From Nitrosopumilus sp. (GTDB lineage: Archaea > Thermoproteota > Nitrososphaeria > Nitrososphaerales > Nitrosopumilaceae), in NCBI GenBank assembly GCA_003702545.1, contig REGK01000001.1, forward strand, positions 1 through 58,201: DNA of 58,201 nt, written 5' to 3'. This document shows, piece by piece, positions 17,115 to 43,400 of this stretch. Below the pieces are notes generated by a model. The model saw nothing but the letters and a program-made list of their open reading frames with translations. It did not search any database and was not told the origin of the DNA. Position 1 is the stretch's first letter, and each line of letters begins with the position of its first letter. Made by a program: the position numbers and the translations under genes.

Positions 17115-17537
17115 ATGAAACAAAAAGCACAATCAAGAAACATCAAGATTCTAGTTGCAAAATTAGGCCTTGACGGACATGATAGAGGAGCACTTGTTTT
17201 GTGTAGAGCATTTAGAGATGCAGGAATGGAAGTAATCTATTCAGGACTTTTCGCAACTCCAGAAAGAGTAGCACAGATTGCAGAAGATGAAGATGTTGAT
17301 GCAATTGCAATGAGTCTACTTAATGGAGCACATGGAACATTATTCCCAAGAGTAGTCAAAGCCCTAAAAAAGAAAAAGATCAACGACGTCCTAGTTGTTG
17401 GCGGAGGAGTAATTCCAGAAATTGATCATAAAGATTTGATCAAAGCAGGAGTGGACAATGTATTTGGACCAGGAACACCATTACCCACAATTATTGATCA
17501 TATCAATACCGGTGTAGGTAAATTAAGAAAAATATAA
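17115..17537 (+). CDS. mcmB: Methylmalonyl-CoA mutase, cobalamin-binding small subunit
   Basis: AKLGLDGHDRG (DxHxxG), SLL, VGGGVIP, FGPGT. Confidence 0.95.
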   Translation: MKQKAQSRNIKILVAKLGLDGHDRGALVLCRAFRDAGMEVIYSGLFATPERVAQIAEDEDVDAIAMSLLNGAHGTLFPRVVKALKKKKINDVLVVGGGVIPEIDHKDLIKAGVDNVFGPGTPLPTIIDHINTGVGKLRKI

Positions 17538-26538: not shown

Positions 26539-26853
26539 TCAAGGATTAACCAAAGCTAATTTTGCCCCAATTCTTTCATAGTATCCATTTTGGTCCATGG
26601 CAGGAACATAAAATGTTGCAGAAATTACATCTCCAACACCTGCACCACAATCTGTCACAACGACAGAATGACCTAAAACAGACTCACCAACACAGCCATA
26701 ATTAGTAACCGCAATGACCGATACATCTTCAGTAACTAGTGTTGGAACTATATTCCAAGGAGTCAATGTGAAAACTAGTATTACTGAAGTTGCTCCAGCC
26801 AAAATCAGCATGAATTTTAGCTGCGGTGTTTTTGTTTGTGTGGTTTGTTGCAT
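26539..26853 (-). CDS. Membrane-anchored hypothetical protein
   Basis: N-terminal TM segment, two Cys; motif-containing promoter upstream. Confidence 0.7.
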   Translation of the reverse strand: MQQTTQTKTPQLKFMLILAGATSVILVFTLTPWNIVPTLVTEDVSVIAVTNYGCVGESVLGHSVVVTDCGAGVGDVISATFYVPAMDQNGYYERIGAKLALVNP

Positions 26854-26880
26854 TTCTCCTCAATATTATTTACATTTTAC

Positions 26881-26921
26881 AAAATATAACCAAGAGTGAG
26901 TTTTGCACCCCAGTGCCAAAA
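26881..26921 (-). promoter_or_regulatory. TATA-like box plus upstream recurring motif copy (sense TTTTGGCACTGG)
   Basis: Plus strand CCAGTGCCAAAA at 26910-26921; sense TTATAT begins at 26889, gap 20 nt. Confidence 0.6.
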
Positions 26922-26922
26922 T

Positions 26923-27252
26923 TTAGATTTTGCAATCACAGCCTTTCTGTTTTAAAATTTGAATTTGTCTAGAGGGAGAATCAACAAAAATATCTTGGAT
27001 TGAATTGCCAGTTGCCTTTCTCTTATCTAGAGGGCTTTTGTGAGAATATCCCCTACGAGCCATCTCAAAAACAAGTTCTTCATGCCTAGAATAGAGAGCT
27101 TTTAGTTTTCCTTTCCAACGTATTGTCTCAGGGTGTAAAGAATATCCTTTTTTGTCTTGAGTGATTACTGCCCACATTGCATGTAGTTCTCGGTGCTCAC
27201 CTAACAAATGGTTTCTACATAATTTCTTTGGAGGAATATCCCAAATTCTCAT
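26923..27252 (-). CDS. Pyrimidine dimer DNA glycosylase / T4 endonuclease V family
   Basis: MRIWD.PPKKLCRNHLLGEHRELH...RHEELVFEMARRGYSH.SPL pattern; start set at ATG 27252. Confidence 0.85.
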   Translation of the reverse strand: MRIWDIPPKKLCRNHLLGEHRELHAMWAVITQDKKGYSLHPETIRWKGKLKALYSRHEELVFEMARRGYSHKSPLDKRKATGNSIQDIFVDSPSRQIQILKQKGCDCKI

Positions 27253-27254
27253 TT

Positions 27255-27380
27255 TTATGAATTCCAAAATTTTTTACAATTATAACACTGATTCTTGTGA
27301 ATTAGTCCATCAGAGTTTTTTCTTATTTCTATTGTTCCATAGTCATCAGAACCACAAGTAGGACATCCTTCATCTCTCAT
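27255..27380 (-). CDS. 41-aa zinc-ribbon microprotein
   Basis: Manual translation MRDEGCPTCGSDDYGTIEIRKNSDGLIHKNQCYNCKKFWNS; abuts both neighbouring genes. Confidence 0.75.
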   Translation of the reverse strand: MRDEGCPTCGSDDYGTIEIRKNSDGLIHKNQCYNCKKFWNS

Positions 27381-27821
27381 CTAAAATACACCCCTCATTC
27401 TTGCAGAATAATCATAATAAAACAAATTTTGAGGAGTGATTTCAATTGCTACTTCATTATGAGAATTTTTTTTCAGGAATTTTGATAACTCATATTCTTT
27501 TTCACCCAAGTATTTTTTCATTAAAATTTGGAGAATGTCTTTTCCAACATCATCAATGATTTTTACAGAGCCATTTCCACGTACTCCTTTGTAAGGCGGT
27601 TTATCAGATGCTATCTCAAATCCACAAACAGTGTTTTTTTTCAAATATTGAATGATTTTTGCAGACTTTTGTGTTGCACAATAAATTTTCTCATTAATTT
27701 GTACAAACCAAAGAGACAGAACGCTTGGAATACCGTCATTATTCATGTATGCAAGACGGATAGGAATTTTAGTATCAGAAATCATTTGATCATAATTTCT
27801 TTTTTCAAGTTTTTGTAACAT
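27381..27821 (-). CDS. Pyridoxamine 5'-phosphate oxidase-like flavin-binding split-barrel protein
   Basis: RLAY...GIPSVLSLWF...CATQKSAKI...YKGVRG pattern. Confidence 0.8.
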   Translation of the reverse strand: MLQKLEKRNYDQMISDTKIPIRLAYMNNDGIPSVLSLWFVQINEKIYCATQKSAKIIQYLKKNTVCGFEIASDKPPYKGVRGNGSVKIIDDVGKDILQILMKKYLGEKEYELSKFLKKNSHNEVAIEITPQNLFYYDYSARMRGVF

Positions 27822-27924
27822 TACTGTCCACCTTATTGATTACATATTTTGTATAACAGAAATCACAAGACCAATCTTCATATTTTTTACCACAAGTAAA
27901 ACAAGATGATATAATTTGACTCAT
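27805..27924 (-). CDS. 39-aa Cys4 microprotein
   Basis: MSQIISSCFTCGKKYEDWSCDFCYTKYVINKVDSNVTKT; ATG about 20 nt below a TTATATA box; overlaps the next gene start. Confidence 0.6.
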   Translation of the reverse strand: MSQIISSCFTCGKKYEDWSCDFCYTKYVINKVDSNVTKT

Positions 27925-27943
27925 AACAAGGATTGGTTTTAGA

Positions 27944-28018
27944 GTATATAATGTGAAAAAGAATTGCCACCTAGTGCTAATGTTAGCACCAGCAGCAATT
28001 ATGGCCACTAGTTAAATA
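27944..28018. promoter_or_regulatory. Divergent promoter with two TATA boxes and three motif copies
   Basis: CTAGTGCTAA 27971-27980, TTAGCACCAG 27983-27992, TGGCCACTAG 28002-28011; TATA boxes at 27945-27951 (-) and 28012-28018 (+). Confidence 0.7.
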
Positions 28019-28048
28019 GCAGATTTGGAAAAAGATCACGAACAAGAC

Positions 28049-28336
28049 ATGACAGATATAATCTGGGGAAATGGCGCAAATGTAGTATCAAACGATATTT
28101 TTGTTCTTAATGTTACACACAGAAAAAGTGGCAATAGTGGAAAATATTCAGATACTGAAAAAATCAGAATATCTGAAGCAGATATTCCAGGTCTACCACA
28201 TACAAGAGAAGATTGGAATGAAGAATCTCTGAAATCATGCGTAAATGAAGCCTTTCTGAAATGTGAAATTGAGCAAAGAGAGGATTCAGGTATTCTCTCT
28301 GCCAAAGTATCACATTCAGGAGTTGGCGGATACTAA
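28049..28336 (+). CDS. Hypothetical protein
   Basis: ORF 28025-28336; ATG 28049 fits the TATA spacing; TAATG-coupled to the next gene. Confidence 0.65.
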   Translation: MTDIIWGNGANVVSNDIFVLNVTHRKSGNSGKYSDTEKIRISEADIPGLPHTREDWNEESLKSCVNEAFLKCEIEQREDSGILSAKVSHSGVGGY

Positions 28337-29112
28337 TGTGGATGCCAAAACAAGGAAGTTGCAGTAAAATCACAAGGAGTGATTTCCAATTACTAATTCA
28401 AGGGAAGATACCTGCAATCATCATCAAAAATTTTTACAGTAAAAATCAATGTGATGAAATTTCTCAAAAAATTAACTCAATACAAAAATCAGATTTTAGC
28501 AATACAAAACTAGAACACATTGGAACATTTTTGATGGCACATGCAACAAAAAGGAAAGAATATTTTGAGAATGTAAAAAAAGACAAGAAAAAAAGACAAG
28601 AGATTTTTTCAACAGATATAGAACCCACTGTCAGGATTTTCAAGATATTTAAAAAACTATTTCCAGAATATGAGGTTTCTACAGCAAAGGAATTAAAAAA
28701 TGAATTTTCCCCATACATCATTAGAATTCATAAAAAAGGAAAATCAATTCCAATACACAAAGACAATGTGAAATATGAAGGTAGAGAATACAAACTATCA
28801 AAAATTGACAGTCAATTATCCTGTATTTTACATATCCAGGAATCAGAGAAAGGAGGAGAGTTGATAATTTATGATAAAAACTGGTCTATGGAAGATGAAA
28901 AATTCAGGAAAATAGATTTTGGATATTATCCGGAAATTATTTCAGAATCAAATTGTTGTAGAATATCAAATCTAAAAGCAGGAGATTTGGCAATAATTAA
29001 TCCAAACTATTTTCATCAAGTAACAAAAATTGAAGGAGAGGCACCAAGGATTTCTCTAGGAATGTTTATAGGAATTTTCAAGAAATATCAACAAATTGTA
29101 GGATGGGCATAA
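28336..29112 (+). CDS. 2OG-Fe(II) oxygenase superfamily protein
   Basis: HxD (IHKD), GGEL, distal His (FHQV) and R-x-S (RIS) motifs. Confidence 0.85.
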   Translation: MWMPKQGSCSKITRSDFQLLIQGKIPAIIIKNFYSKNQCDEISQKINSIQKSDFSNTKLEHIGTFLMAHATKRKEYFENVKKDKKKRQEIFSTDIEPTVRIFKIFKKLFPEYEVSTAKELKNEFSPYIIRIHKKGKSIPIHKDNVKYEGREYKLSKIDSQLSCILHIQESEKGGELIIYDKNWSMEDEKFRKIDFGYYPEIISESNCCRISNLKAGDLAIINPNYFHQVTKIEGEAPRISLGMFIGIFKKYQQIVGWA

Positions 29113-29759
29113 TGAAAAAAATTATTTTTATTGTTTTTGCACTGGCGATAATTTCAACAAACTATGCATCAGCCCACAAACTCATTAGTCATGATGACAG
29201 CCACAGAGATTTTGACTCAGCATTAGTCATTCCTGATCACAAGATTTCATGGGCAATTTATGAAAATCTAGGTGTAAATGAGGCCAAATTTTACACATTT
29301 GAGGCAAAAAAAGGAGATTCATTTTATGCAAGTATTGTAATTCCAAAAATCCAAGGATTAGAAAACTATGCACCCACACTAGTAATGGTTGGAGAAGATA
29401 ATTTTTTCAGGGATAAGGTAATTTATGAAAATGGTTTTCCAGGAAAAGAGTTCTATGAACCATTTGGCCAAGTAACATATTGGGAAAGACAAGAATTAAG
29501 AACAGAGATACCAAAAGATGGAACTTATTTCATAGTTGTTACAGATGAAAAAAACCAAAGCGGAAAATATAGTTTGGCAGTTGGAGAAATAGAGGACTTT
29601 TCAGGAGAAAACATGTTTACGTTATTACCTAAAGCATGGTTAGACACAAAATTTTTTGTAAATGATTATGTATCAATAGTAATTGCCTTTGGGATTTTTC
29701 TTGCGATGTGCAGTGTACCAGTAATTGCAATTTTCAAAAAAAGAAAAACAAAGCTTTAG
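29112..29759 (+). CDS. Exported protein with a C-terminal membrane anchor
   Basis: Signal peptide ending ASA-HK; FYEPF motif; C-terminal TM followed by a basic tail. Confidence 0.75.
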   Translation: MKKIIFIVFALAIISTNYASAHKLISHDDSHRDFDSALVIPDHKISWAIYENLGVNEAKFYTFEAKKGDSFYASIVIPKIQGLENYAPTLVMVGEDNFFRDKVIYENGFPGKEFYEPFGQVTYWERQELRTEIPKDGTYFIVVTDEKNQSGKYSLAVGEIEDFSGENMFTLLPKAWLDTKFFVNDYVSIVIAFGIFLAMCSVPVIAIFKKRKTKL

Positions 29760-31814: not shown

Positions 31815-33128
31815 TCACTCTAGGTTCAGAGGAATATTTGCACTACCAAAGTCTTCTGCAATTCTAAAGACATAGTCTTTTGAGGAATCATATTCGAATT
31901 CGGTTCCACCATATCCAATGTTTGGACCAAATAGAATGTTAAACTCTCTTGAATCACCAGGGTTTAATACAATTTGTCCACTGGTAAAGTCCATACCAGA
32001 ATATTTGAAGGCCTTTGAGCCATCCCATACATCATATGCACATATTTGGGGACTGGTGCAGTTTAATGCAACAATTTCAGAGCTTGTATTTTCAGCAAGC
32101 ATTCTGAAGGATAAAATCGCTTGACCTGTTGGAGAGATTTTAAATTCGCTTCCATCAGTATTGACTCCCTGCCAATAGTAAGTAATAGGACCTACACTGA
32201 ATTTTTGCGCAGTGGCCTTGTATTCGTATAGTTTAATAGATTTTTTGAGAGGCTTCTCACAGTCTAATCTTTCATAGGCCTTTTTGAATTCAGAGCACTT
32301 TTCAATTTCTGCTTCAATTGCAGCCAATTTTGGATCATTACTTTTCGGTTTAGAAGGTTTTTCTTCGGAGATTTCAGTCAAAGTTGTTGAAATCAATCCC
32401 ATTGACATCAAATGTTGTACACCATTAACAAATTCATTATCTGTAATGATGCCATCTGCCCACCAACCAGCGTTATTCTTTACCCAGGTTGGGACGCCTT
32501 CAGAAGATTCTGCAGAAACAGTTGTTGGAGGAACTTGGATAATTCCATCATTAATTAGAAACTCTATTCCTTTTAGGAAATCAGATTCAGATATAGAACC
32601 ATCTGCCCACCAACCAGCGTTATTCTTTACCCAGGTTGGGACGCCTTCAGAAGTGACTGGTCTAAGACTAGGATCTAGCCCATCTAAAATTTCATCCATG
32701 TTTTGTCCTGAAATTTTTACAACGGCTGCAGAAACGATATCAGAACTATCCCCTGTAGGAAGTGTAGAGTCTATGTATTTTGCATAAAGTACATCTCCAG
32801 GATTTGCAATTAATCGATTCTTTGTGCTTTCTCCAGAATCTGCAACATAAACAGTTCCCTTAAAGATTCCAGTGTAAACACCTGTTTCAACAACTTGTAT
32901 TTCTAATGCTTTTGGTGACGAATCAGACCAGACATATATCATAAACTTGTCAGCAAAATTTGGATATTCTTTTTTATTCATGTCATTATCTTTTACATAG
33001 ATTTCAGCAAAAGAATTACTAGATACAACATCTTGTTTCCAATATATTATTCCAACATTAGAAGATTCAGCATACACTAGGGGAATAGTAAAAAGCAACA
33101 GAGGTAATAGGAAAAAAAGATTTTTCAT
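31815..33128 (-). CDS. Secreted protein with two Trp-rich (VPTWVKNNAGWWADG) repeats
   Basis: Signal peptide; S-layer-like N-domain (VVETGVYTGIFKG); two repeats; C-domain paralogous to 33225-34130. Confidence 0.85.
   Translation of the reverse strand: MKNLFFLLPLLLFTIPLVYAESSNVGIIYWKQDVVSSNSFAEIYVKDNDMNKKEYPNFADKFMIYVWSDSSPKALEIQVVETGVYTGIFKGTVYVADSGESTKNRLIANPGDVLYAKYIDSTLPTGDSSDIVSAAVVKISGQNMDEILDGLDPSLRPVTSEGVPTWVKNNAGWWADGSISESDFLKGIEFLINDGIIQVPPTTVSAESSEGVPTWVKNNAGWWADGIITDNEFVNGVQHLMSMGLISTTLTEISEEKPSKPKSNDPKLAAIEAEIEKCSEFKKAYERLDCEKPLKKSIKLYEYKATAQKFSVGPITYYWQGVNTDGSEFKISPTGQAILSFRMLAENTSSEIVALNCTSPQICAYDVWDGSKAFKYSGMDFTSGQIVLNPGDSREFNILFGPNIGYGGTEFEYDSSKDYVFRIAEDFGSANIPLNLE
32389..32639. 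repeat. 251-bp direct repeat, copy 1
   Basis: Appears identical to 33805-34055 on manual comparison. Confidence 0.9.
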
Positions 33129-33150: not shown

Positions 33151-33205
33151 TATTTAAAAAAAATAATTTTTGATTCCTAGTGGTAAAATTTCAATAGTGG
33201 TAAAA
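33151..33205 (-). promoter_or_regulatory. TATA box plus two motif copies
   Basis: CTAGTGGTAAAA 33177-33188 and ATAGTGGTAAAA 33194-33205; sense TTAAATA at 33157-33151. Confidence 0.7.
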
Positions 33206-33224: not shown

Positions 33225-34130
33225 TTATCCCAACCCTAATGGGATGGAGAGACTTCCAAAGGGCTCACTAATTCTGAAGTGATAATCCTTGTTTGGATCA
33301 TACTCAAATGTGGTTCCACCACCCCCAATGTTTGGTCCAAAGAAAAAGTTGAAGAATCTTGGATCATTAGGTTTGAGTACCAATTGAGCACTTGTAAAGT
33401 CCATTTGGGAGTACTTGTAATCATTGCTACCGTTTGAAACATCATAATTACATACTGCAGGTCCAGTACAGTATAATGCCTCATTTTTATCACTACCTGT
33501 GTTTTCAGCTAGGAATCTAAGATAAAGCAAAGCTTGACCTGAAGAAGATATTTCAAAACTGTTTCCCTCAGTATTTAATCCAGACCAATAGTATGTAATT
33601 GGACCAACTTGATATGTTTGAGAGTTGAGTTTGTACTCATAGACTGCAATTTTATTCTCTGCTGCTTTTTCACAATTTAGTCGATCATATGCTTTGTTTA
33701 TTTCAGAACATGCCTCCAGTTCGGATTGATATCTAGATAGTTCTGAATCAGTGTTTTGTAGAGGAGTGGTTTTAACATCTTCTACGGCTTCATTTGAGGC
33801 AACAGAAATCAATCCCATTGACATCAAATGTTGTACACCATTAACAAATTCATTATCTGTAATGATGCCATCTGCCCACCAACCAGCGTTATTCTTTACC
33901 CAGGTTGGGACGCCTTCAGAAGATTCTGCAGAAACAGTTGTTGGAGGAACTTGGATAATTCCATCATTAATTAGAAACTCTATTCCTTTTAGGAAATCAG
34001 ATTCAGATATAGAACCATCTGCCCACCAACCAGCGTTATTCTTTACCCAGGTTGGAACATCAGCATATGCAAAAGACACAGTGGATGCAATTAAGAAAAT
34101 TGTGGCCATTGCAGTTAATTCAGTTTTCAT
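33225..34130 (-). CDS. Secreted protein with two Trp-rich repeats
   Basis: Signal peptide (FAYA-D), two repeats, Cys-containing C-domain paralogous to 31815-33128. Confidence 0.85.
   Translation of the reverse strand: MKTELTAMATIFLIASTVSFAYADVPTWVKNNAGWWADGSISESDFLKGIEFLINDGIIQVPPTTVSAESSEGVPTWVKNNAGWWADGIITDNEFVNGVQHLMSMGLISVASNEAVEDVKTTPLQNTDSELSRYQSELEACSEINKAYDRLNCEKAAENKIAVYEYKLNSQTYQVGPITYYWSGLNTEGNSFEISSSGQALLYLRFLAENTGSDKNEALYCTGPAVCNYDVSNGSNDYKYSQMDFTSAQLVLKPNDPRFFNFFFGPNIGGGGTTFEYDPNKDYHFRISEPFGSLSIPLGLG
33805..34055. repeat. 251-bp direct repeat, copy 2
   Basis: Appears identical to 32389-32639. Confidence 0.9.
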
Positions 34131-34152: not shown

Positions 34153-34251
34153 TATTTAAGCTAGTGCTAAAAATTTTTCTAGTGGTAAAAAATTATGTTT
34201 TTCGGAAAAAATCTAGTGCCAAAAGCATTTCAAGGTAATCTGCCTTATATG
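34153..34251. promoter_or_regulatory. Divergent promoter with three direct motif copies
   Basis: CTAGTGCTAAAA 34161, CTAGTGGTAAAA 34179, CTAGTGCCAAAA 34213; TATA boxes at 34153-34159 (-) and 34245-34251 (+). Confidence 0.75.
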
Positions 34252-34273
34252 CAAACCAAATTTATCTTAAAGA

Positions 34274-34801
34274 GTGAGTGAAAATCAGGAAGTTCTGAGA
34301 GGGCCTAGATTATCTGAACAAGATATCAAAGAATATGTCCTAGAAAGATTCGAAGATGTAAAACAGGGAAAAATCAAAAATCTTGTGTCATTTCAAGCTA
34401 TGAACAAATACATGATCATGGCACATAATCAAGAAGAATTAAAGATCTTAGGAAATATTGTTGCAAGTTATAAAAAAATCTCATTGTTAGACATAATATC
34501 AGAATATGAAGAACATCTAAAGATTGCACTAGAAAAACCACCAACCATAAAATCACATTCAAATGTAATAATGCATATTTTTGGATATTTTTCAAAAAAT
34601 TTCAGTCAACTAGAAAAAGAACAATTTTTCAAATTGTTAAATGATTTCAAAAAAGAAGAAATTACAATTGGAAAAATTTTATCTGAGATTAATCCAGTTA
34701 TTTATCGGTTCAATAGCACATATCTTGCAAGTCAGACATATTTTTTGCTATATTCAGATCCACGTCCAGGAAATTTGTTTCAGATGTTATCTGAAAAGTA
34801 A
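34274..34801 (+). CDS. YbgA/DUF1722 family protein
   Basis: LVSFQAMNKYMIMAH...LGNIVA...HSNVIMHIFGYFS...YLASQTYF pattern. Confidence 0.85.
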   Translation: MSENQEVLRGPRLSEQDIKEYVLERFEDVKQGKIKNLVSFQAMNKYMIMAHNQEELKILGNIVASYKKISLLDIISEYEEHLKIALEKPPTIKSHSNVIMHIFGYFSKNFSQLEKEQFFKLLNDFKKEEITIGKILSEINPVIYRFNSTYLASQTYFLLYSDPRPGNLFQMLSEK

Positions 34802-34803
34802 AG

Positions 34804-35964
34804 TTAGAAAAAGTCGGAGAGGGTTTTTTGTCTCATTAATTTTGAGATATTTCCATGAGAAAGCCATTCAGATTTACTAATACTCATTTTCTCAGATGCC
34901 AAATTCAGAGCATGATCAAAATTATCTGCAATTATAGGGGTTTGTTTCATTGCTTCTCGAATTCCCTCTCGAACCTGCCAAACGCCTACAGGTATTGCAT
35001 ATTCAGGCCGTATTTCTCTAAAAATCAAGACGCCGGATTGAATATTTTTTTCACTCAAGTATTCCAACACACCCAATTTAGCTGCAAAATAGGCTCCTGC
35101 AATAGCAGGTGGATGATCAATGCCCCTAGCATCTTCAAAATCAGAGCCAAATCCCAGAACACCATTCGAATACCAAGATTCAATCATCTCATAAATCCAT
35201 CTATGAGGAAACAAAACTACGGAAAAATGATTTCCCAAATGTTCATATGAAAAAACCTTGTGTGAATCGATTAAATCACAATCAAGTATTTCACCTAGAA
35301 GCGAGTTTGAGATAATATCATCAGTTGCAGTAATGCTCCACTTGGTTGGAACAAGTTTACGTTTTTGGCCAAGCATTCCAATACTAAAACATTTTTGAAT
35401 TTTTGAAATATCAATTCCAGAGTTGTACAAATTCATAACTGCATCTTGTGCCTTCAAATCTTTGTCATAGAAGGCCTTTTCAATTGATTTTACAGAAGAA
35501 TTTCCAGAGAATTTAGCAGATTTTATTTCTCCAACAGGACCAAAAGGGGCACTTTCACCATCTAGAGAAATATTAGAAGAAACAGATTTTTCAAAAATCA
35601 AATCAGAATCAGTAGGTTTTGATGACATTGTAACTTCTTGAAGATTTTCAATGTAACGTCCGTCTGTTTGATCAATAGATAATTTTTGAGTTCCACGAAC
35701 TAAATTCAATCTAAAGTTTATAATTTCCTCCAAAGATTTTCCTTTCCATTTTTCAGGACTATCAAGTAAGCTAGTGTCACCATGAATCGGGGGAACCATA
35801 GGACCAACAAAGACTTTTGGATAATTATACGACCCAACAAATACAGAGGGAGGACTGGTTCCACTAATTGAATCAGAGGAAAACAAATTTCCATATTTTG
35901 ATAATGTCTCATGCCATTTTGTTAAAATTGAACGACGAATATCTTGTGAATCTGAAGACATCAA
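34804..35964 (-). CDS. nreA: Nre family PCNA-interacting DNA repair protein
   Basis: SPPSVFVGSYNYPKV.VGP, RKLVPTKWSITATD, PVGVWQVRE; C-terminal PIP box QKTLSDFF. Confidence 0.9.
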   Translation of the reverse strand: MMSSDSQDIRRSILTKWHETLSKYGNLFSSDSISGTSPPSVFVGSYNYPKVFVGPMVPPIHGDTSLLDSPEKWKGKSLEEIINFRLNLVRGTQKLSIDQTDGRYIENLQEVTMSSKPTDSDLIFEKSVSSNISLDGESAPFGPVGEIKSAKFSGNSSVKSIEKAFYDKDLKAQDAVMNLYNSGIDISKIQKCFSIGMLGQKRKLVPTKWSITATDDIISNSLLGEILDCDLIDSHKVFSYEHLGNHFSVVLFPHRWIYEMIESWYSNGVLGFGSDFEDARGIDHPPAIAGAYFAAKLGVLEYLSEKNIQSGVLIFREIRPEYAIPVGVWQVREGIREAMKQTPIIADNFDHALNLASEKMSISKSEWLSHGNISKLMRQKTLSDFF

Positions 35965-36054
35965 AATTCATGTCTAATTTGTGCCTAATAACTTGACTAA
36001 TTATCGAAGTTGACGGGAGGTAAACACAAGTATTCCCACATAACTAGAATATTT

Positions 36055-36978
36055 ATGACAATAAACAGAATTGTTTCATTCTTACCAAGTGCAACAGAAT
36101 TACTATATGAATTTGGAGTTCAAGACAAGATATACGGAGTTACACATGAATGTAAATTTCCTACTGAAGCAATTTCAAAACCACAAGTAATCAATTCAGT
36201 GATAGATTCGGATAAATTATCAAGTAATGAGATCAATACACAGACATGTCAATTACTGAACGAAGGAAAAGACATTTTCATTTTAAATGAAAAAAATCTA
36301 AAGGATGCGAATCCAGATCTAATAATCTCTCAGGAGACATGTGAGGTATGTGCGGCATATACCAATCAGATCAGCAAAGCACTACAAATTCTTGATAAAA
36401 AACCAATTATTCATTCAATGGATCCACATAACGTATCAGAAATCTTAGATTCGGTAATCAAACTAGGTAAAATTTTAGAAAAAGATAGCAAAGCAAAAAT
36501 GATTTCAGATTTGTTGAAAAAAAGAATTCAGAAGATACAAAATGTGAGACATAGTAACATTCCAAAAATTCTGGCAATAGAATGGATAGATCCTTTTTTT
36601 ACAGCAGGTCATTGGGTTCCAGAAATGATAGAAATTGCAGGAGGCAAAAATATGATAAGCAATACAGGAGAGCATTCAAGACGTATGGATTTTGATGAGA
36701 TTACAGAATCAGATGCAGATATCATAATTCTCATGCCATGTGGATTTGACACAAAGCGTACAATTTCAGAATACAAGAACATATTAGAAAAAAATGACAG
36801 ATGGAACAAACTCAGAGCAGTAGAAAACAAGGCTGTTTTTGCAGTCGATGCAAATTCATTTTTTAGCAAACCCAGTATTAGAACTATTGAAGGAATAGAG
36901 ATACTTGCAAAAATAATTCACCAAGAAAAATTTGAAGAAGTTAATGTTTCAGAAAATTCTTTTGCAAGCCTTTATTGA
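36055..36978 (+). CDS. BtuF-like cobalamin/iron-siderophore substrate-binding protein
   Basis: RIVSFLPSATE, GVTHEC, QETCEVCA, EWIDPFFTAGHWVPEMI, MPCGF; start set at ATG 36055; no signal peptide visible. Confidence 0.85.
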   Translation: MTINRIVSFLPSATELLYEFGVQDKIYGVTHECKFPTEAISKPQVINSVIDSDKLSSNEINTQTCQLLNEGKDIFILNEKNLKDANPDLIISQETCEVCAAYTNQISKALQILDKKPIIHSMDPHNVSEILDSVIKLGKILEKDSKAKMISDLLKKRIQKIQNVRHSNIPKILAIEWIDPFFTAGHWVPEMIEIAGGKNMISNTGEHSRRMDFDEITESDADIIILMPCGFDTKRTISEYKNILEKNDRWNKLRAVENKAVFAVDANSFFSKPSIRTIEGIEILAKIIHQEKFEEVNVSENSFASLY

Positions 36979-36987
36979 AAAATTCAA

Positions 36988-38367
36988 TCAAATTGGTTTA
37001 CCTTTGTACTGGTAATCAATTACTTTGTGGAATAAATTATGAGATGCTACAACAGTTAATGTAACTACAAACATTCCAACAAAATTCCTTATTGTCATTA
37101 ATTCATTTGGAGTATTAGCTATCAATGAAGTTTCAAATAACACATAATAGTTATCAAATAACCAAAATGCCAAAGTAATCCAAGACAAGATACCGGCTAT
37201 CAAATAACCCAGACGAGTTTTATTGTGAATTAGTATTATTGAAAACCCAATTGCAAGATACCAAATGGTAGAACAGATTAACCATAAAGGTTCATAGACA
37301 TCAGGTCTATCATCTAACCAATAGTAACTTGAACCAATAACAGCTAATGTAAATAGAGAAACTTGAATTAATTTTTGGTTAATTTTGAATCCAGTTTTTT
37401 CTTCTCGTTGTTGCATTTGAGGAGGATTTGATTTCATTTCTTTTGTTGCAGTATCAATTGCCTCACGCACAGACTTTAGACGAATAGGAATAATTTTTGT
37501 TATGGAATTATCAGTGATGACGGCATTGTGAACCAAACTATCAATTAAAGGCCTTGCAAGAGAAGCTTGTACAGGTGTAACTAGATCAACCCAATAAGAC
37601 GACAATCTAGTAGTCAGAAATGGAATTTGAATGACGAAAAGATTTTTGTTCAGATATGCAGAATAAACACGCATTAATTCCCCATAAGTCATTTTGTCAG
37701 GACCACCAATCTCAAAAATTTTGCCCATGGTTTCAGGTTTTGAAAGAGATTTGATTAGATATTCAATAACATCATCTATTGCAATTGGTTGAGTCAGGGA
37801 CATTACCCAGGAAGGACACACCATAACACTCAATCTTTCTACAAGATAACGAAGCATGGTATAAGATCCACCTTTTGCGCCAATGATTATAGAAGCCCTA
37901 AATTCAGTTACAGGTATACTTCCAGATGCAAGAATTTCACCAACTTCCTTTCTACTGCGCATATGAGGAGATAAATCTAAACTATCATTAACCAATCCGC
38001 CTAAATAGATAATTCGTTTCACACCAGTTTCAGTTGCAGCTCTGAGAAAGTTTTGAGCTTGTATTCTTTCTCTTGCAGCAAATTTTTGCCAATCTTCTTT
38101 ATGACCCTCCATAGAATGCAATAAATAAAATGCAGTGTCAATACCAGACATTGCATTTTTCAATTCATCAAAATTGAAAACATCTGCTTTAACATATTTA
38201 GTATTTTCATTATTAGGTAATTCTTTTCTACTCAGTCCTTTTACTGTATAACCTGATGAAACAAGAGAAGAAATTAATTTTGAACCTATAAAACCAGTTG
38301 CCCCAGTAACCAAAATCGAAAAAGGTTTGTAATGAGAGGCTTTAGATTCAGAAATCAATTGTTTCAT
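36988..38367 (-). CDS. YbjT-like atypical SDR/NAD(P)-binding protein with a C-terminal membrane domain
   Basis: LVTGATGFIG, YLLHSM, IIYLGGL, SPHMRSR, RASIIIG; about four TM helices at the C-terminus. Confidence 0.85.
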   Translation of the reverse strand: MKQLISESKASHYKPFSILVTGATGFIGSKLISSLVSSGYTVKGLSRKELPNNENTKYVKADVFNFDELKNAMSGIDTAFYLLHSMEGHKEDWQKFAARERIQAQNFLRAATETGVKRIIYLGGLVNDSLDLSPHMRSRKEVGEILASGSIPVTEFRASIIIGAKGGSYTMLRYLVERLSVMVCPSWVMSLTQPIAIDDVIEYLIKSLSKPETMGKIFEIGGPDKMTYGELMRVYSAYLNKNLFVIQIPFLTTRLSSYWVDLVTPVQASLARPLIDSLVHNAVITDNSITKIIPIRLKSVREAIDTATKEMKSNPPQMQQREEKTGFKINQKLIQVSLFTLAVIGSSYYWLDDRPDVYEPLWLICSTIWYLAIGFSIILIHNKTRLGYLIAGILSWITLAFWLFDNYYVLFETSLIANTPNELMTIRNFVGMFVVTLTVVASHNLFHKVIDYQYKGKPI

Positions 38368-38574
38368 TTATGATATAGCTCCCATCAGTTCTTGCTTTTG
38401 TTTTTCTTTTTTCACTTTGATGCCTAAACCAATTGTTATGCCGCCCATGGCTAACCAAAGATAGCCCCCAGTAGTGAATGCGGAATGTAGTGACACATCA
38501 GAATATTGTGCAGTTAAAAATCCACCACCAAGACCAAGTAAGGCAATACCTGCAAAAAGAATTGTTTTGTCCAT
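38368..38574 (-). CDS. Small 2-TM membrane protein
   Basis: MDKTILFAGIALLGLGGG...; AAGGAGA upstream; abuts the SDR gene. Confidence 0.7.
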   Translation of the reverse strand: MDKTILFAGIALLGLGGGFLTAQYSDVSLHSAFTTGGYLWLAMGGITIGLGIKVKKEKQKQELMGAIS

Positions 38575-38630
38575 TAGACATATCTCCTTTCTTGATGTAT
38601 TTTGTGCATGAATAATTTTTGCTTCAATAT

Positions 38631-38778
38631 TATTTAACATGGTTCTAATTTTTCCTGCTAGTGCTAAATTATCATGTTTTGCCTACAATGTAGGAACAAA
38701 AAATCTCAAGAGTGGAGCATAAATGGCAGTTTAGCACTAGCCAAAGTAGTTAGCATTAGTTATATAATATACCACTAA
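38631..38778. promoter_or_regulatory. Divergent promoter of the regulator with four motif copies
   Basis: CTAGTGCTAAA 38658; TTAGCACTAG 38731, TTAGCATTAG 38750 and ATACCACTAA 38769 (19-bp period) straddling TTATATA at 38760. Confidence 0.75.
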
Positions 38779-38786
38779 AATTAGTC

Positions 38787-39629
38787 ATGGTCTACATACG
38801 CGCAAAGAAAGTAAAATCTGATCAATATCTCTATCTAGTGAAAAGCGTGTGGGATTCAAAAAAGAGTACATCAAAACAAGAAATCATCAAATATCTTGGA
38901 AAAGCATCTGAGGTTGTCAAAGAGGACATTCCAATAGACTATAGAAATGATGCTAAAGTACTATCAGTATTAGCATCGTACAATCCAGAAGATATCAAGA
39001 AAAGAGAGGACGTTGCAAAGAAATCAAAGCAGCAACTATACAAAAAATTAACTGAAGGAAACATTCAAGATTGTATAAAAATCTATGAAGAGCATATCAA
39101 AATTTTTAGTTCCTCAAATTTCTTTGATAAAATTCTAAAACCTACAATGCATAGAATTGGAGATGAATGGTCTAAAGGTAAAATGAGTATAGCTACAGAA
39201 CATGTTGCAAGCAATATTGCTCAAACACTTGTAAAAATAATAATGGACCAGGTATCAGCGAAAGGTAATAAGAAGAAAGTTCTCATATGTGTTCCATTAG
39301 GAGAAGAGCATCATTTGGGATGTGACGTCTTGGAGACATATCTATCAATCAAAGGATTCAAAATTTTTAATATGGGGACGTCAATCCCAACAGAATCAAT
39401 TCTTAGTTTCATTGACAACAATAAACCAGATGTAGTATTGGTGTCAATTACATTAGAAGACAATCTGTCAGCAGGCCAAAGACTAGTTAAGAAAATAAAA
39501 GATCATGTAGACATTCCAGTGTTAGTTGGAGGATACGCCCTTCAAGCAAAGAAGATTCCAAAATTTGCAGGTCAGTTAATTCCAGATTGTGGTCTTGAAG
39601 AAGTTCCTAAAATTTTAAGAAAAGTTTAA
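38787..39629 (+). CDS. Cobalamin-binding regulator with CarH/LitR-type photosensor signature and a non-MerR N-terminal domain
   Basis: Helical cap W-SKGKMSIAT-EH (W-x9-EH); Rossmann B12 domain GEEHHLG (ExHxxG), SIT, VGG; basic beta-rich N-terminus. Confidence 0.85.
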   Translation: MVYIRAKKVKSDQYLYLVKSVWDSKKSTSKQEIIKYLGKASEVVKEDIPIDYRNDAKVLSVLASYNPEDIKKREDVAKKSKQQLYKKLTEGNIQDCIKIYEEHIKIFSSSNFFDKILKPTMHRIGDEWSKGKMSIATEHVASNIAQTLVKIIMDQVSAKGNKKKVLICVPLGEEHHLGCDVLETYLSIKGFKIFNMGTSIPTESILSFIDNNKPDVVLVSITLEDNLSAGQRLVKKIKDHVDIPVLVGGYALQAKKIPKFAGQLIPDCGLEEVPKILRKV

Positions 39630-39630
39630 T

Positions 39631-40971
39631 CTAATTGCTTGTTTGCAAAAAAGATTCAATCTTGGGTTGACATAAAATCGAACTATGTGCTGCAGAGTCA
39701 GTTCCAATTCCATAGCTAACAGTAGAATCACCCACAAAAAACAAGCCTTCTATGCCTGGAATTTGATGAGGCATCTTTGATTTCCAGACCATCCCAGGTT
39801 CTTTTACCACAGATTCAACTAATTTCCAAGCCATAGGCCTCTCCCATAGCAAGGATGAGTTAAAGTCTGGATATATTGATGAAATTTCATCTTTCATGGA
39901 TTGGACAATTTGTTTTATTTTCTGAGAGTCATCTGCGACAGATGGATCTACAGGAGTACCAGCAATTATCAAGTGTTCACCAGGTGGGGAAACAGAAGAA
40001 GTGATGTTTGAAATGAAAAATATTCCCTTTGTCGTATAATGTTCCCCTACAGGAAAAACAACTTGCCTTGAATCAATTTTAGAATTTAGTGCAAAGTGAA
40101 CCTCAACTACAGCAGTTTTTTTATCTAAACGATTAATTTTTTCAATGAATTTCTTGTCAATTACACCATCATCAAACAATTGATTTAGTGCTATGTAAGC
40201 AGGATATGAAATTACAACACACGAGGTAGGAAAAAATGAATCATCCTCAGTCATAACCCCCGTGACTTTAGAATCAGAAATTACGATTTTTTTCACATGC
40301 TTATTTGTGTCAATTATCCCATTTTTCTCAAGGATGTAATCTGCCAAGACATTTGAAATTGAATCATAACCACCATCGTCCGGATAAGCAAATTCACTTG
40401 TTCCACCCTTGAACGGATTTGCACGAATTATGGTTCTTGCAAATTCACCTAATGAAATATGATCAGCAGTATCTGCAAAAGCTAACATGCACACAGCTTC
40501 AAAAAAGGCTTTTGTGTCATCGTCTAATTTTTTAGTTAATTCAGTAAGAGACTTGTCATCCCATTCTTCAGTTTTTTCAATAGAAGTAAATGCCATTGGG
40601 AGTAGCAATTTAAGTAGACTTAGTCGGCTTCTCATAGGAATTAAAGATAATCGTAGTAAATCACCCATTCCTTTTGGGTATTTATGAAATCCAGTATCAG
40701 AATGAAATGCAATATTGTCAACTTTTGCGAGTTTTAATCTAGATTCAATTCCAATACTTTTCAATACTTCAAAAATTGCAGATTTTTTGTAAAATGGCAT
40801 AATATGGAATCCGTTATCTAAAATGTGGTTTTTGTACATCAACGAGGCAGTTCTGCCTCCTAATTTGGAAGATTTTTCAAGAACTCTCACATGGTGGCCT
40901 TCCTTTGCAAGCAATGCGCCAGTGGTCAAGCCACCCACACCTGCACCTATTACGAAGATATCATCTGCCAT
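39631..40971 (-). CDS. FAD-dependent oxidoreductase, phytoene desaturase/amine oxidase superfamily
   Basis: IGAGVGGL, LEKSSKLGGR, DNGFH, GLFFVGDS. Confidence 0.85.
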   Translation of the reverse strand: MADDIFVIGAGVGGLTTGALLAKEGHHVRVLEKSSKLGGRTASLMYKNHILDNGFHIMPFYKKSAIFEVLKSIGIESRLKLAKVDNIAFHSDTGFHKYPKGMGDLLRLSLIPMRSRLSLLKLLLPMAFTSIEKTEEWDDKSLTELTKKLDDDTKAFFEAVCMLAFADTADHISLGEFARTIIRANPFKGGTSEFAYPDDGGYDSISNVLADYILEKNGIIDTNKHVKKIVISDSKVTGVMTEDDSFFPTSCVVISYPAYIALNQLFDDGVIDKKFIEKINRLDKKTAVVEVHFALNSKIDSRQVVFPVGEHYTTKGIFFISNITSSVSPPGEHLIIAGTPVDPSVADDSQKIKQIVQSMKDEISSIYPDFNSSLLWERPMAWKLVESVVKEPGMVWKSKMPHQIPGIEGLFFVGDSTVSYGIGTDSAAHSSILCQPKIESFLQTSN

Positions 40972-41396
40972 GATTTTTCAGCACATATTACAAATTCATC
41001 CATAGTCTTGCTCATTTTCTTGACAACAAAATTTTGCAAAAAAGGAAATAGTTTAAGGAAGTTATTGAAACGCAAGGTTACATCAATAGTAATCACAGTT
41101 CCATTATCTTTTTCATCATAAAATTCGATAAAAGAACTTCCTTTCAAAGGACCAGTCATAATATAAATTTCATGAATATTAGGATAAACAATGACATGTT
41201 TTGTTTTAATTTGAATTGTTATCCCTAAGAAATTTATTTTCTCATTAACAATTTTTCCATATTTGTTTTCTTCAAGCACATCAAGAGACTTGAAATAATT
41301 TGGCATAATGTTATGAAAATTCTCTACATCAGTACTAATTTGAAAAATGTGTGGTTGTGAAAGTTTTGAATATCTTTGAAGTGTAAACTGTTTCAT
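40950..41396 (-). CDS. SRPBCC/START-like (polyketide cyclase) protein
   Basis: IFQISTDVENFHNIMP...GPLKG...C-terminal helix pattern. Confidence 0.75.
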   Translation of the reverse strand: MKQFTLQRYSKLSQPHIFQISTDVENFHNIMPNYFKSLDVLEENKYGKIVNEKINFLGITIQIKTKHVIVYPNIHEIYIMTGPLKGSSFIEFYDEKDNGTVITIDVTLRFNNFLKLFPFLQNFVVKKMSKTMDEFVICAEKSWQMISS

Positions 41397-41755
41397 TGCG
41401 CAGCAACCATTCCTAAATAATTTGACAAATTTGTCTTTGTAATTTTAAAGTCAGGATAGTTATTCATGATTTGTTTTGCAAGTAATGTCATTGCCATTCT
41501 TACACCATTAGTTTTTTGAGGATCAGTGTTTGGATAAAGACGAATTGTTGTTTTGTTTTTCTTAGTAGAAATTTCAATTAGAAATTCTTGATGATTCTCA
41601 TCAACTACCACTGTTGGAAGTAACGCAGTAAAATTATCTTTGTCAACAAAAATAGTTTGAATTTTTATCAGTGATGAATTTCTTTGGAATATAGGTGAAA
41701 AATTTTCTGAGAAATTATTCAGATCAATTTTGCCATTAAATACAATATGAGGCAT
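41393..41755 (-). CDS. Hypothetical protein
   Basis: 120 aa; ATGA overlap with the SRPBCC gene; TATA box upstream. Confidence 0.75.
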   Translation of the reverse strand: MPHIVFNGKIDLNNFSENFSPIFQRNSSLIKIQTIFVDKDNFTALLPTVVVDENHQEFLIEISTKKNKTTIRLYPNTDPQKTNGVRMAMTLLAKQIMNNYPDFKITKTNLSNYLGMVAAQ

Positions 41756-41776
41756 GAATTTTTTATCGTTTTTCAG

Positions 41777-41880
41777 TATATAAAAAAACTAGAAAATTAT
41801 CATAGTGCCAACATATGATTAGATAATCCATTAATAGGCACAAATTAGCACTAGAATAATACATTTTTGAGATTAAAATA
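41777..41880. promoter_or_regulatory. Divergent promoter with two motif copies
   Basis: ATAGTGCCAA 41802-41811 (18 nt from the - strand TATA) and TTAGCACTAG 41845-41854 (18 nt from TTAAAATA at 41873). Confidence 0.7.
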
Positions 41881-41901
41881 CTACCAGAGCAAAAAAAGAT
41901 T

Positions 41902-42042
41902 ATGGGACAAACAAATGAATTAGAATCAACATATGCAGCAATTGCAGAAAGTAAAGAAAAATTATTTGAAATGTTATTAAAAAAACTATCAACGAGTAAA
42001 GATTTAGAAAGTACAATGGCAAGAGTAGTAGCTGTTTCATAG
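41902..42042 (+). CDS. 46-aa hypothetical helical protein
   Basis: MGQTNELESTYAAIAESKEKLFEMLLKKLSTSKDLESTMARVVAVS; lies at leaderless distance from a TATA box. Confidence 0.55.
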   Translation: MGQTNELESTYAAIAESKEKLFEMLLKKLSTSKDLESTMARVVAVS

Positions 42043-42046
42043 TAAA

Positions 42047-42277
42047 TTGTTTAAATTAAAACCATACAAGCCAAATATTTTAACTGCATTTGGAGTTATG
42101 TTTTTAATTTCTGCAGCTATAATTCCAATACAAAATTTGATAGTATGGGGACCTGATTATGTACATCATTTTTACACATCATCAGAAATTACATCTGAAA
42201 AAATATCTATCGGAGTAATTGTATTAGGGATTTCATTTATTATTTTAGGATACAAAAAGCAAGTACACATAGAGTGA
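42047..42277 (+). CDS. Small 2-TM membrane protein
   Basis: Two hydrophobic segments. Confidence 0.65.
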   Translation: MFKLKPYKPNILTAFGVMFLISAAIIPIQNLIVWGPDYVHHFYTSSEITSEKISIGVIVLGISFIILGYKKQVHIE

Positions 42278-42314
42278 TTAGCACTAGAAAAAATATTTTC
42301 TTCATCTTAAATAA
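42278..42314 (+). promoter_or_regulatory. Motif copy plus TATA box upstream of the TFB operon
   Basis: TTAGCACTAG 42278-42287; TTAAATAA at 42307, gap 19 nt. Confidence 0.72.
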
Positions 42315-42334
42315 TTTCAAAACATAGTCAATGC

Positions 42335-42487
42335 ATGAAACAAGAATTAATTCAAAAACAAAACAATGAATTAAAAATTAAAAATAATGAAATGAAAACT
42401 TCTATTAATTATAGCGATTCAAAAATTAATTTAAACGAGTATAATATCTCATGTGAAGACTTGAGTATTCTTTTGTGGAGAGTGTAA
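42335..42487 (+). CDS. 50-aa hypothetical protein preceding TFB
   Basis: MKQELIQKQNNELK...SCEDLSILLWRV; stops 1 nt before the tfb ATG. Confidence 0.45.
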   Translation: MKQELIQKQNNELKIKNNEMKTSINYSDSKINLNEYNISCEDLSILLWRV

Positions 42488-42488
42488 A

Positions 42489-43400
42489 ATGATTACAGAG
42501 CTAGTACATCAGAAAACATGTAAAAAAAACAGAGTTGTAACAGATATCAATACAGGTGAAATTGCATGTATGAATTGTGGTGCAGTATTATCTGAAAGAG
42601 TAGTAGATAGTAGACCTGAAAATTTAGGAATGTCTGGAGAAGAATATCAAGCAAATAGCAGAGTAGGAAGAAAAATTTCATTAAAAATGATAGATATGGG
42701 ATTGTCAACCATCATAGAATCTAAAGACAAAGATGCAACTGGAAAAGGGTTATCCAATGAAAACAAGAGGATGTTTTATCGCCTACGTATGTGGGATAGA
42801 AACAGTCGTTCTGCAAGCACCGTAAAGTCATTTCAAAAGGCATTTACCATGCTTGATGGAATTAGCGCAAAATTGGGACTTCCAGAACCAGTTATAGAGC
42901 AAACAGCATATCTATTTCGAAAAATTGCTGCAAAGAAGATCCTTGCAGGGAGATCAACTGCAGGAATACTTTGTGCTGCAATTTACATTACATGCAGAAT
43001 GACAAACATTCCCAGAACACTCCAGGATGTAGCAAACGCGGGAAATGTGAATAAGAAAAATATCCAAAGAACATACAGATTTCTTGCCAGAGAGTTAGAC
43101 ATTACACCTGAAATTTATAATCCAACAGAATTCGTTACAAGAATTGCAAAAGCTGTAGACATTTCTGAAAAAACAGAAAGGTTGGCATTTAAAATTCTAA
43201 ATTTATCAGCAAGGAAAGGAGTTTCAGAAAGCAAAAATCCAATGGCGATGGCAGCAGCTGCAACATATCTTGCATCAGTACGAAATAACGAAAAGATTTC
43301 ACAGTTAAAAATTTCCAAAGTATCTGGAATCAGTGCAGTTACAATTAGAGACAGAACAAAGGAAATTTTGACGAAGGTAGGAGGTGAGATAAATGGGTAG
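42489..43400 (+). CDS. tfb: Transcription initiation factor IIB paralog (divergent)
   Basis: TGEIACMNCG zinc ribbon, DMGLSTII, RLRMWD, PRTLQDVA, ISAVTIRDR. Confidence 0.93.
   Translation: MITELVHQKTCKKNRVVTDINTGEIACMNCGAVLSERVVDSRPENLGMSGEEYQANSRVGRKISLKMIDMGLSTIIESKDKDATGKGLSNENKRMFYRLRMWDRNSRSASTVKSFQKAFTMLDGISAKLGLPEPVIEQTAYLFRKIAAKKILAGRSTAGILCAAIYITCRMTNIPRTLQDVANAGNVNKKNIQRTYRFLARELDITPEIYNPTEFVTRIAKAVDISEKTERLAFKILNLSARKGVSESKNPMAMAAAATYLASVRNNEKISQLKISKVSGISAVTIRDRTKEILTKVGGEING

Follow-up and report, generated by a model that had tools for sequence, protein, structure and literature searches.

A candidate light-released, vitamin B12-dependent gene switch with a beta-sheet head in Nitrosopumilus

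Light inhibits ammonia-oxidising archaea, and more work on the underlying biochemistry is said to be needed (PMC9797979, available text). A window of 58,201 nt, the whole stretch of DNA analysed here from a Nitrosopumilus sp. genome (GCA_003702545.1, contig REGK01000001.1), holds the gene for a protein, P0001, that had been put forward as a CarH-type adenosylcobalamin (AdoCbl) photosensor on an N-terminal domain of another kind. The questions that this locus raises are whether P0001 is a light sensor, what its N-terminal head might bind, and which genes it could control. Judged by its sequence, P0001 is likely to be a gene switch that light releases, with no counterpart so far reported from these light-sensitive organisms in the literature searched. 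The description of the host as an ammonia oxidiser relies on the Nitrosopumilus names borne by the closest homologues; a search for amoA in the source assembly, which is 93.6 % complete, gave no match.

Both B12 domains of P0001 score above the Pfam cut-off (B12-binding_2 for residues 82-152 and B12-binding for 164-251), and Pfam gives no match to the N-terminus. The W-x9-EH spacing pointed out in the original prediction is exact (W128-x9-E138-H139; W codon 39168-39170, E138-H139 codons 39198-39203), as is the ExHxxG element, which reads E173-E-H175-H-L-G178 within the motif E173-x-H175-x2-G178-x41-S220-x-T222-x25-G248-G249. The contrast drawn there with a DxHxxG protein also holds, the mutase small subunit encoded at 17115 reading G-L-D-G-H-D-R-G. 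Wx9EH and the ExH motif are described as marks of CarH-type domains (PMC9304148, PMC8156234, available text). In the accessible text of PMC11796333, the signature of light-responsive cobalamin-binding domains (SignatureFinder) consists of GxxW, EH, GxxH and GxxxP. All four motifs are present in P0001, including G125-x2-W128 and G197-x3-P201, and the complete set is found in 30 of 65 homologues, GxxxP being the variable element (31/65). Since W128 and the EH pair are each kept in 59, and H175 in 64, of the 65 distinct full-length homologues, the motifs in P0001 are not due to chance.

The assignment of the module to the CarH type is supported by the ranking of relatives as well as by the motifs. 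With a family profile, photocobilins, CtMerR and T. thermophilus CarH (TtCarH) ranked above MetH, and a Foldseek search with the predicted model (pLDDT 89.6), a check that had been proposed with the prediction, likewise placed photoreceptors over MetH, with TtCarH at an E value of about 1e-11. The best profile and fold matches of the module are the photocobilins SasPcob and AbDPcob (8J2W/8J2X/8J2Y) and CtMerR (8JBS/8JBT), the partner domains of which are biliverdin-binding, diguanylate cyclase or MerR, in contrast to the head of P0001, which none of them has. In NCBIfam, the best match is the CarH model NF052513, with 65 bits over residues 80-263 only, where the cut-off is 400; the MtbC, MtaC and MetH models all fall far below their cut-offs. 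On these comparisons the B12 module is closer to CarH and the photocobilins than to MetH. It is extremely improbable that P0001 belongs with the MtbC/MetH corrinoid proteins as a carrier of methyl groups, even though JGI names such as 'methanogenic corrinoid protein MtbC1' suggest it and a single-sequence phmmer search with P0001 returned MetH first: Wx9EH is absent in MetH (PMC8156234, available text), a glutamate and not an aspartate precedes the His, photoreceptors lead both the profile and the fold searches, and no methyltransferase partner recurs in the neighbourhoods.

AdoCbl should be available to such a sensor, because the host encodes both adenosyltransferase families and methylmalonyl-CoA mutase. 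Unlike CarH, P0001 does not keep the Arg/Asp dimer pair; the TtCarH residues that we take to make up this pair align with E174 and S199, so that the salt bridge (Arg-Asp or Glu/Asp-Arg) is lost. The His that commonly, though not universally, follows the Trp in CarH is replaced by S129, and His occupies this position in none of the 65 homologues, most of which have Ala. The TtCarH variant H132A cannot monomerise, and CtMerR and the photocobilins are light-responsive without that His or a bis-His ligand (PMC11796333, available text).

The head had been read as a basic, three-stranded beta sheet rather than a helix-turn-helix, and the AlphaFold2 model agrees, with predicted strands at residues 2-9, 12-23 and 28-39 followed by a helix at 56-65 (pLDDT about 90). 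Residues 1-40 contain 10 K/R and 3 D/E. Ten of the 14 invariant non-start positions in the 65-sequence alignment fall within residues 1-52, and the invariant head residues (K7, Y14, Y16, V18, W22, Q31, Y36, L37, G38 and P49) are retained from the source genome through to Thermoplasmatota homologues. No MerR match was obtained with Pfam among 36 heads, and RxWERRY is absent from the P0001 sequence. Searches with the head alone gave no Pfam family, no PDB sequence match, and ESM Atlas matches at 0.80 only. Likewise, in the structural search that had been suggested for the head, its model had no Foldseek match at E 0.001, and the best Z score (4.7) was to ribosomal proteins. There was no significant match to a solved DNA-binding domain; the solved beta-sheet folds of this kind include AP2, integrase arm-binding, MBD and WRKY. 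These negative results are no evidence for a new fold.

A resemblance to the N-terminus of IS1634-family transposases had been pointed out, and it is real at the level of profiles. With a profile of residues 1-56, the N-termini of two complete IS1634 transposases were matched at E values of 1.3e-10 and 1.9e-9; the two proteins themselves score 215 and 214 bits with NF033559 (cut-off 100). Alignment of the head with IS1634 N-termini by hhalign gave a probability of 98.4 and an E value of 4e-15 over 40 columns, values that are partly circular as the transposases had been fetched with the same profile. Seven IS1634-type transposases share K7, Y14, Y16, V18, W22, Q31, Y36, L37 and G38 with the head, and residues 1-40 are homologous to their N-terminal beta-sheet segment. 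Unlike these transposases, P0001 has no DDE domain and no transposase family match in Pfam or NCBIfam, and its head is single-copy in the source genome.

The head may have been recruited from a transposase, but its relatives extend beyond transposases. Run against 1.84 billion representatives, the head profile had 777 matches at E 0.001; among the best 150 of these, from which the composition was taken, 57 match the remainder of the regulator family and many others are fragment-like. Pfam scans of 55 of the best 150 identified two DDE transposases, four HNH nucleases and one AbiEii protein, and the head also occurs on proteins of 160-185 aa without a Pfam match (P0217, P0236, P0239, P0244, P0246, P0250, P0251, P0259, P0261, P0267 and P0269). 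Because HNH nucleases, an AbiEii-family protein and these short proteins carry the head too, a transposase origin cannot be claimed; the head is, by its sequence relatives, a mobile module. The literature searched gave no role for it within IS1634 transposases. DNA binding by the head is predicted from its charge, the company it keeps and the conserved box described below. Apart from these, P0203, a protein of 102 aa, has two heads and falls in a cluster with Woesearchaeota entries.

The conserved box, TTRSCACTAG, lies about 18-21 nt before TATA, often with a second copy 18-19 nt after the first that overlaps the BRE position. The region 38720-38790, which had been singled out for DNA-binding assays, contains such a pair (38731-38759): the sequence upstream of the regulator gene reads TTAGCACTAG-N9-TTAGCATTAG followed directly by TTATATAA, with the ATG 27 nt past the start of TATA. 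Exact matches to the box number nine in the window, where 0.17 would be expected, and nine promoters of the window have it 18-20 nt before TATA. As a loose pattern gave many matches in repeats, a stricter one was taken for counts. Across the source genome, TATA lies 18-21 nt from the box at 14 sites, nine of them between 27980 and 42278, and other offsets have 0-2 sites. In 64 other upstream regions, 36 box pairs were found, all 19 nt apart. Among 302 half-sites over 72 loci, the TATA core follows at 19-20 nt in 162 cases and at 0-1 nt in 60, and the upstream control is flat, never exceeding five per offset. The same box and geometry recur at 80 distant metagenome loci that stood outside matrix building, where 52 TATA cores lie at 19-21 nt among 123 half-sites.

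The second copy is strongest at the regulator's own promoter, and 107 of 163 BRE-side copies outscore shuffled spacers. Boxes with no recognisable second copy still have TATA at 18-21 nt in 48 of 115 cases (controls 1-5). A reversed box is seen as well, at a constant distance of 22-23 nt from TATA (18 of 43 reverse entries, not many of which are independent). No palindrome extending the box was found, a sigma-70 promoter scan stayed at chance level, and no BRE signal was seen in a general promoter set of 24 members. The pattern is uneven between families: in family f9, box-plus-TATA is found in 0 of 11 genomes, yet a box pair with a variant TATA precedes the gene at four of six loci, and one locus of family f4 has no box before the gene. 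RNA contigs from four marine runs cover the regulator gene closely, beginning at 38801-38811 in three of them, and on the divergent side they end at 38574-38590; being contigs, they do not map transcript starts, and levels or light regulation cannot be read from them.

Coordinates of the regulator gene, its domains and the boxed units in the window, with one B12 protein for comparison
Feature	Coordinates	Strand	Basis
Regulator gene P0001, 280 aa: predicted beta-sheet head, linker, CarH-type cobalamin-binding module	38787..39629	+	open ORF, Pfam, AlphaFold2
N-terminal head, residues 1-65: predicted three-stranded sheet (1-40) and helix 56-65, putative DNA-binding	38787..38981	+	AlphaFold2, profiles
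Four-helix cap PF02607, residues 82-152	39030..39242	+	Pfam
Rossmann B12-binding domain PF02310, residues 164-251	39276..39539	+	Pfam
Own promoter: box TTAGCACTAG 38731-38740, second box TTAGCATTAG 38750-38759, TATA 38760-38767	38731..38767	+	sequence
Divergent promoter: box 38658-38667, degenerate second box, TATA	38630..38667	-	box, Pfam
Box pair (18 nt period) and TATA before secreted 301-aa protein 33225-34130	34153..34188	-	box search
Reversed box 34213-34222, 22 nt before TATA (34245) of DUF1722/YbgA (34274-34801)	34213..34252	+	box, Pfam
Single box and TATA before secreted 437-aa protein 31815-33128	33151..33186	-	box search
Box 27971-27980 and TATA, then glycosylase unit	26539..27980	-	box, Pfam; operon inferred from tight spacing
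Box pair 27983-28011 and TATA: 95-aa ORF (28049-28336), WelO5-like (28336-29112), 218-aa ORF	27983..29759	+	box, Pfam
Box 41802-41811 and TATA: 120-aa ORF, SRPBCC-like, FAD oxidoreductase	39631..41811	-	box, Pfam
Box 41845-41854 and TATA: 46-aa ORF (41902-42042), 76-aa ORF	41845..42277	+	box
Box 42278-42287 and TATA: 50-aa ORF (42335-42487), TFB paralogue (42489-43400)	42278..43400	+	box, Pfam
For comparison, outside system: DxHxxG B12-binding subunit encoded near methylmalonyl-CoA mutase gene	17115..17537	+	motif

The boxed units of the window carry genes for DNA repair, oxidoreductases and secreted proteins. The divergent promoter precedes a 68-aa membrane protein (38368-38574) and then an SDR/epimerase (36988-38367). 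The glycosylase unit runs from a 39-aa Cys-rich ORF (27805-27924) through a PNPOx-like protein (27381-27821), a 41-aa Cys-rich ORF and the pyrimidine-dimer DNA glycosylase (26923-27267) to a 104-aa ORF. Next to the regulator, an SRPBCC-like protein (40950-41396, a weak Pfam match) is encoded with an FAD amine-oxidase/desaturase-like oxidoreductase (39631-40971). The secreted 301-aa type is the commonest boxed gene class (38 of 145 promoters).

The two secreted proteins of the window are paralogues with repeated WVKNNAGWWADG segments and have no Pfam match. Four ORFs of 39-50 aa (27805-27924, 27255-27380, 41902-42042 and 42335-42487), two of which have CxxC pairs, are likely to be unannotated microproteins; three of them start 27-29 nt after a boxed TATA. 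An NreA DNA-repair gene (34804-35964) and a gene for a periplasmic binding protein with a weak BtuF match (36010-36978) are both in the island, and neither has its own box-plus-TATA. On other contigs of the source genome, box-plus-TATA sites are found at G000:C53:26946 and C69:11651, and the gene at the former (213 aa) has a boxed homologue that adjoins a photolyase in another genome, G113.

Comparisons between genomes show that box and gene travel together. In the family of the source genome, 68 of the 90 genomes that carry the gene have the box pair, against 7 of the 111 that lack it; outside this family, box-plus-TATA is found in 32 of 46 with and 5 of 147 without, and within family f15 in 27 of 31 and 2 of 25, respectively. 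Relatedness of the genomes, and boxes that neighbour the gene, inflate all of these counts. Unlinked boxes are seen before photolyase units in two genomes that have the gene on another contig. Photolyase was found in 27 of 201 genomes; the gene accompanies it in 25 of these, within 10 kb in 17; no match to it was found in the source genome, and 65 of the 90 gene carriers are without one. A same-strand box within 1.5 kb upstream was present for only 5 of the 11 photolyases examined. Across genera, the genes of this set turn up together again in varying order, a TFB paralogue being present in 18 of 52 neighbourhoods. In relatives the neighbours include UvdE, Pyr_excise, TspO and TudS-DUF1722, of which UvdE and TspO are at distant loci and TudS-DUF1722 at one close locus; in Pseudomonas, TudS-DUF1722 and photolyase sit in LitR-repressed operons (PMC11417400, available text). 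Among the boxed gene classes listed, none was recognised as a gene for cobalamin synthesis.

With a probability of roughly 0.5, P0001 is an AdoCbl-dependent repressor that acts on TTRSCACTAG boxes and is released by light. AdoCbl would lie between the cap and the Rossmann domain, with H175 as the lower ligand and W128, E138 and H139 over the adenosyl group. The bound form would oligomerise, one head anchoring on the strong upstream box and another on the BRE-side copy, and in the dark would cover the TFB site beside TATA. Photolysis of the Co-C bond would then rearrange the oligomer, this site would be let go with the BRE freed, and the regulator gene, the UV glycosylase, DUF1722, the oxidoreductases, the two secreted proteins and the TFB paralogue would be transcribed, mostly from near-leaderless starts. 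An oligomer anchored upstream, with TFB blocked in the dark, is favoured because the second copy covers the place of the BRE and is at its strongest before the regulator gene itself. Repression is favoured because second copies better than shuffled spacers, together with the reversed box, fit steric blocking. Counting against this reading are the fixed TATA spacing of boxes without a second copy, S129 in place of His, the residues E174 and S199 at the dimer positions, the presence of GxxxP in fewer than half of the homologues, the missing photolyase match in the source genome and in most gene carriers, the photolyases examined that have no box upstream, and a head with no significant match to a solved DNA-binding domain.

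It is somewhat unlikely that P0001 is instead a light-switched activator, or switches from repressor to activator, staying on the upstream box and recruiting TFB/TBP to weak-BRE promoters after photolysis, while the second copy merely damps its own and the strongest promoters. This reading is kept in play because the boxes without a second copy hold their exact spacing, and a lone site upstream of BRE/TATA is the usual position of archaeal activators (PMC4158304, PMC5817253, available text). A TFB paralogue within a boxed unit is in keeping with it and, as no homologue has His after the Trp, light may not dismantle the oligomer at all. Activation is harder to square with an asymmetric box that also occurs reversed at a fixed distance, although few of these cases are independent (10 of 13 at 22 nt are orthologous DUF1722 promoters), and with the box-like sequence retained in most BRE-side copies. 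Tentatively, P0001 may even be a B12 photoreceptor that acts directly on the archaeal TBP/TFB machinery by way of an as yet undescribed DNA-binding module, a beta sheet that transposases share, turning from repressor to activator in light while it stays on the upstream box, and governing a light-stress regulon with its own TFB paralogue in five families of the order and perhaps in Thermoplasmatota.

The same DNA-binding regulator could respond to cobalamin supply or form, or to oxidative damage to the cofactor, rather than to light. Its gene extends to lineages in which amoA was not matched (0 of 2 genomes tested in family f14, about 80 % complete), most carriers are without photolyase, the gene for the weakly BtuF-like binding protein is nearby, and the commonest boxed gene encodes a secreted protein without an assigned function. 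Such a signal is nonetheless unlikely, given that the boxed classes hold no recognised cobalamin synthesis gene, the binding-protein gene has no box-plus-TATA, and the recurrent neighbours are UV-specific (photolyase, UvdE, pyrimidine-dimer glycosylase and TudS-DUF1722). The box might also be read by something else, for instance the TFB paralogue or a regulator encoded elsewhere, leaving P0001 as a member of the regulon or acting via protein contacts. The recurrence of the TFB paralogue in neighbourhoods, the indirect evidence for DNA binding by the head, some carriers with no box upstream of the gene itself, and the f4 locus would fit this. It is quite improbable: the copy with the best conservation is 19-20 nt away from TATA, on the far side of the BRE, which is the element that TFB reads, the box comes and goes with the gene among the genomes of family f15, and the head residues are invariant up to the Thermoplasmatota homologues. 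Taking the readings together, P0001 is probably a B12-dependent, light-responsive regulator of the boxed genes.

Compared with CarH/LitR (T. thermophilus CarH, PDB 5C8D/5C8E, and Myxococcus and Bacillus homologues), P0001 is alike in its four-helix cap with Wx9EH and Rossmann ExHx2Gx41SxTx25GG, its length of about 280 aa with an N-terminal output domain, a predicted direct-repeat operator that overlaps the core promoter, and neighbours such as photolyase and TudS-DUF1722. It would work like CarH. In contrast, CarH has a MerR winged helix with RxWERRY where P0001 has a predicted beta-sheet head, and the CarH operator consists of 11-bp nnnnTnnACAn tandem repeats, not a 10-bp box with a period of 18-19 bp; furthermore, the boxed promoters are of the archaeal TATA/BRE type. 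By sequence, P0001 is not a member of CarH, from which it departs in head, operator and family model. Sulfolobus UV-inducible promoters with ANTTTC, including that of tfb3, likewise have a fixed upstream element before stress genes with a TFB paralogue; their motif differs, and the available text of PMC5817253 names no B12 sensor.

In the proposed photoreceptor architecture, what is new would be the head, the operator and the archaeal setting, and not the fusion as such. CarH-type B12 domains are already in print on other outputs (HTH, DGC, BBD, GAF and MEDS; PMC11796333, available text), non-MerR ones among them, and novelty is therefore confined to these three aspects, the sensor half being ordinary. 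The suggested optogenetic use is speculative, because the His after the Trp of T. thermophilus CarH is absent in all 65 homologues. No published description of a P0001-type protein was found in the literature searched, a scope with few subscription papers; it may stand among the 1561 signature proteins of the NDEx network. The available text of PMC7554672 mentions TFB expansion and photolyase and not a protein of this type. For ammonia-oxidising archaea, the locus supplies a named candidate light sensor together with an operator predicted precisely and a small set of candidate targets, and with these, light sensing by these archaea becomes testable. If true, the proposal would explain what a 40-residue module does that is so far unannotated and stands at the front of IS1634 transposases and HNH nucleases, and would add a CarH-type sensor with a different operator logic.

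The gene is present in 90 of 201 genomes of its own family and in 85 of 251 genomes of the order, spread over five families. A single-protein search of a draw from the phylum found nothing outside the family, whereas the profile found the gene in 46 of 193 genomes in the order's other families. Atlas clusters of the homologues are 99-100 % archaeal, mostly Nitrososphaerota. The same architecture is seen in a protein named from a Thermoplasmatota archaeon, the one locus of which has a weak reversed box only (8.5 bits) and a sensor kinase neighbour, and is a lead only.

A clade of six homologues (L013:5902-6765, L014, L015, L031, L058 and L060), for which alone a quick-version tree was used, has kept the head and lost the Trp and EH, one member being also without H175. 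This clade, present in some relatives, and not P0001, recalls CarA of Myxococcus, a B12-independent paralogue. The intact gene is also present in five of the six hosts. These paralogues adjoin a MEDS-domain protein and a winged-helix gene, and have a different, partly palindromic upstream motif, ACTCACC..GGTG. Small stand-alone ORFs that match the four-helix cap only lie directly 3' of the paralogue at L058:4797-5102 and L031:7712-8047, and are possibly its partner or antagonist. The gene is truncated or split in genomes G078 (L061:8067-8330) and G068 (L050:8180-8683), the former retaining boxes. In family f14 (L198-L201), genomes of 0.8-1.0 Mb carry the gene with an inverted box pair upstream, 23 and 4 nt from TATA. 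At four loci of family f9 (L192, L193, L196 and L197), the gene lies just 3' of an ORF of 142-147 aa that by eye resembles a pyrimidine-dimer glycosylase.
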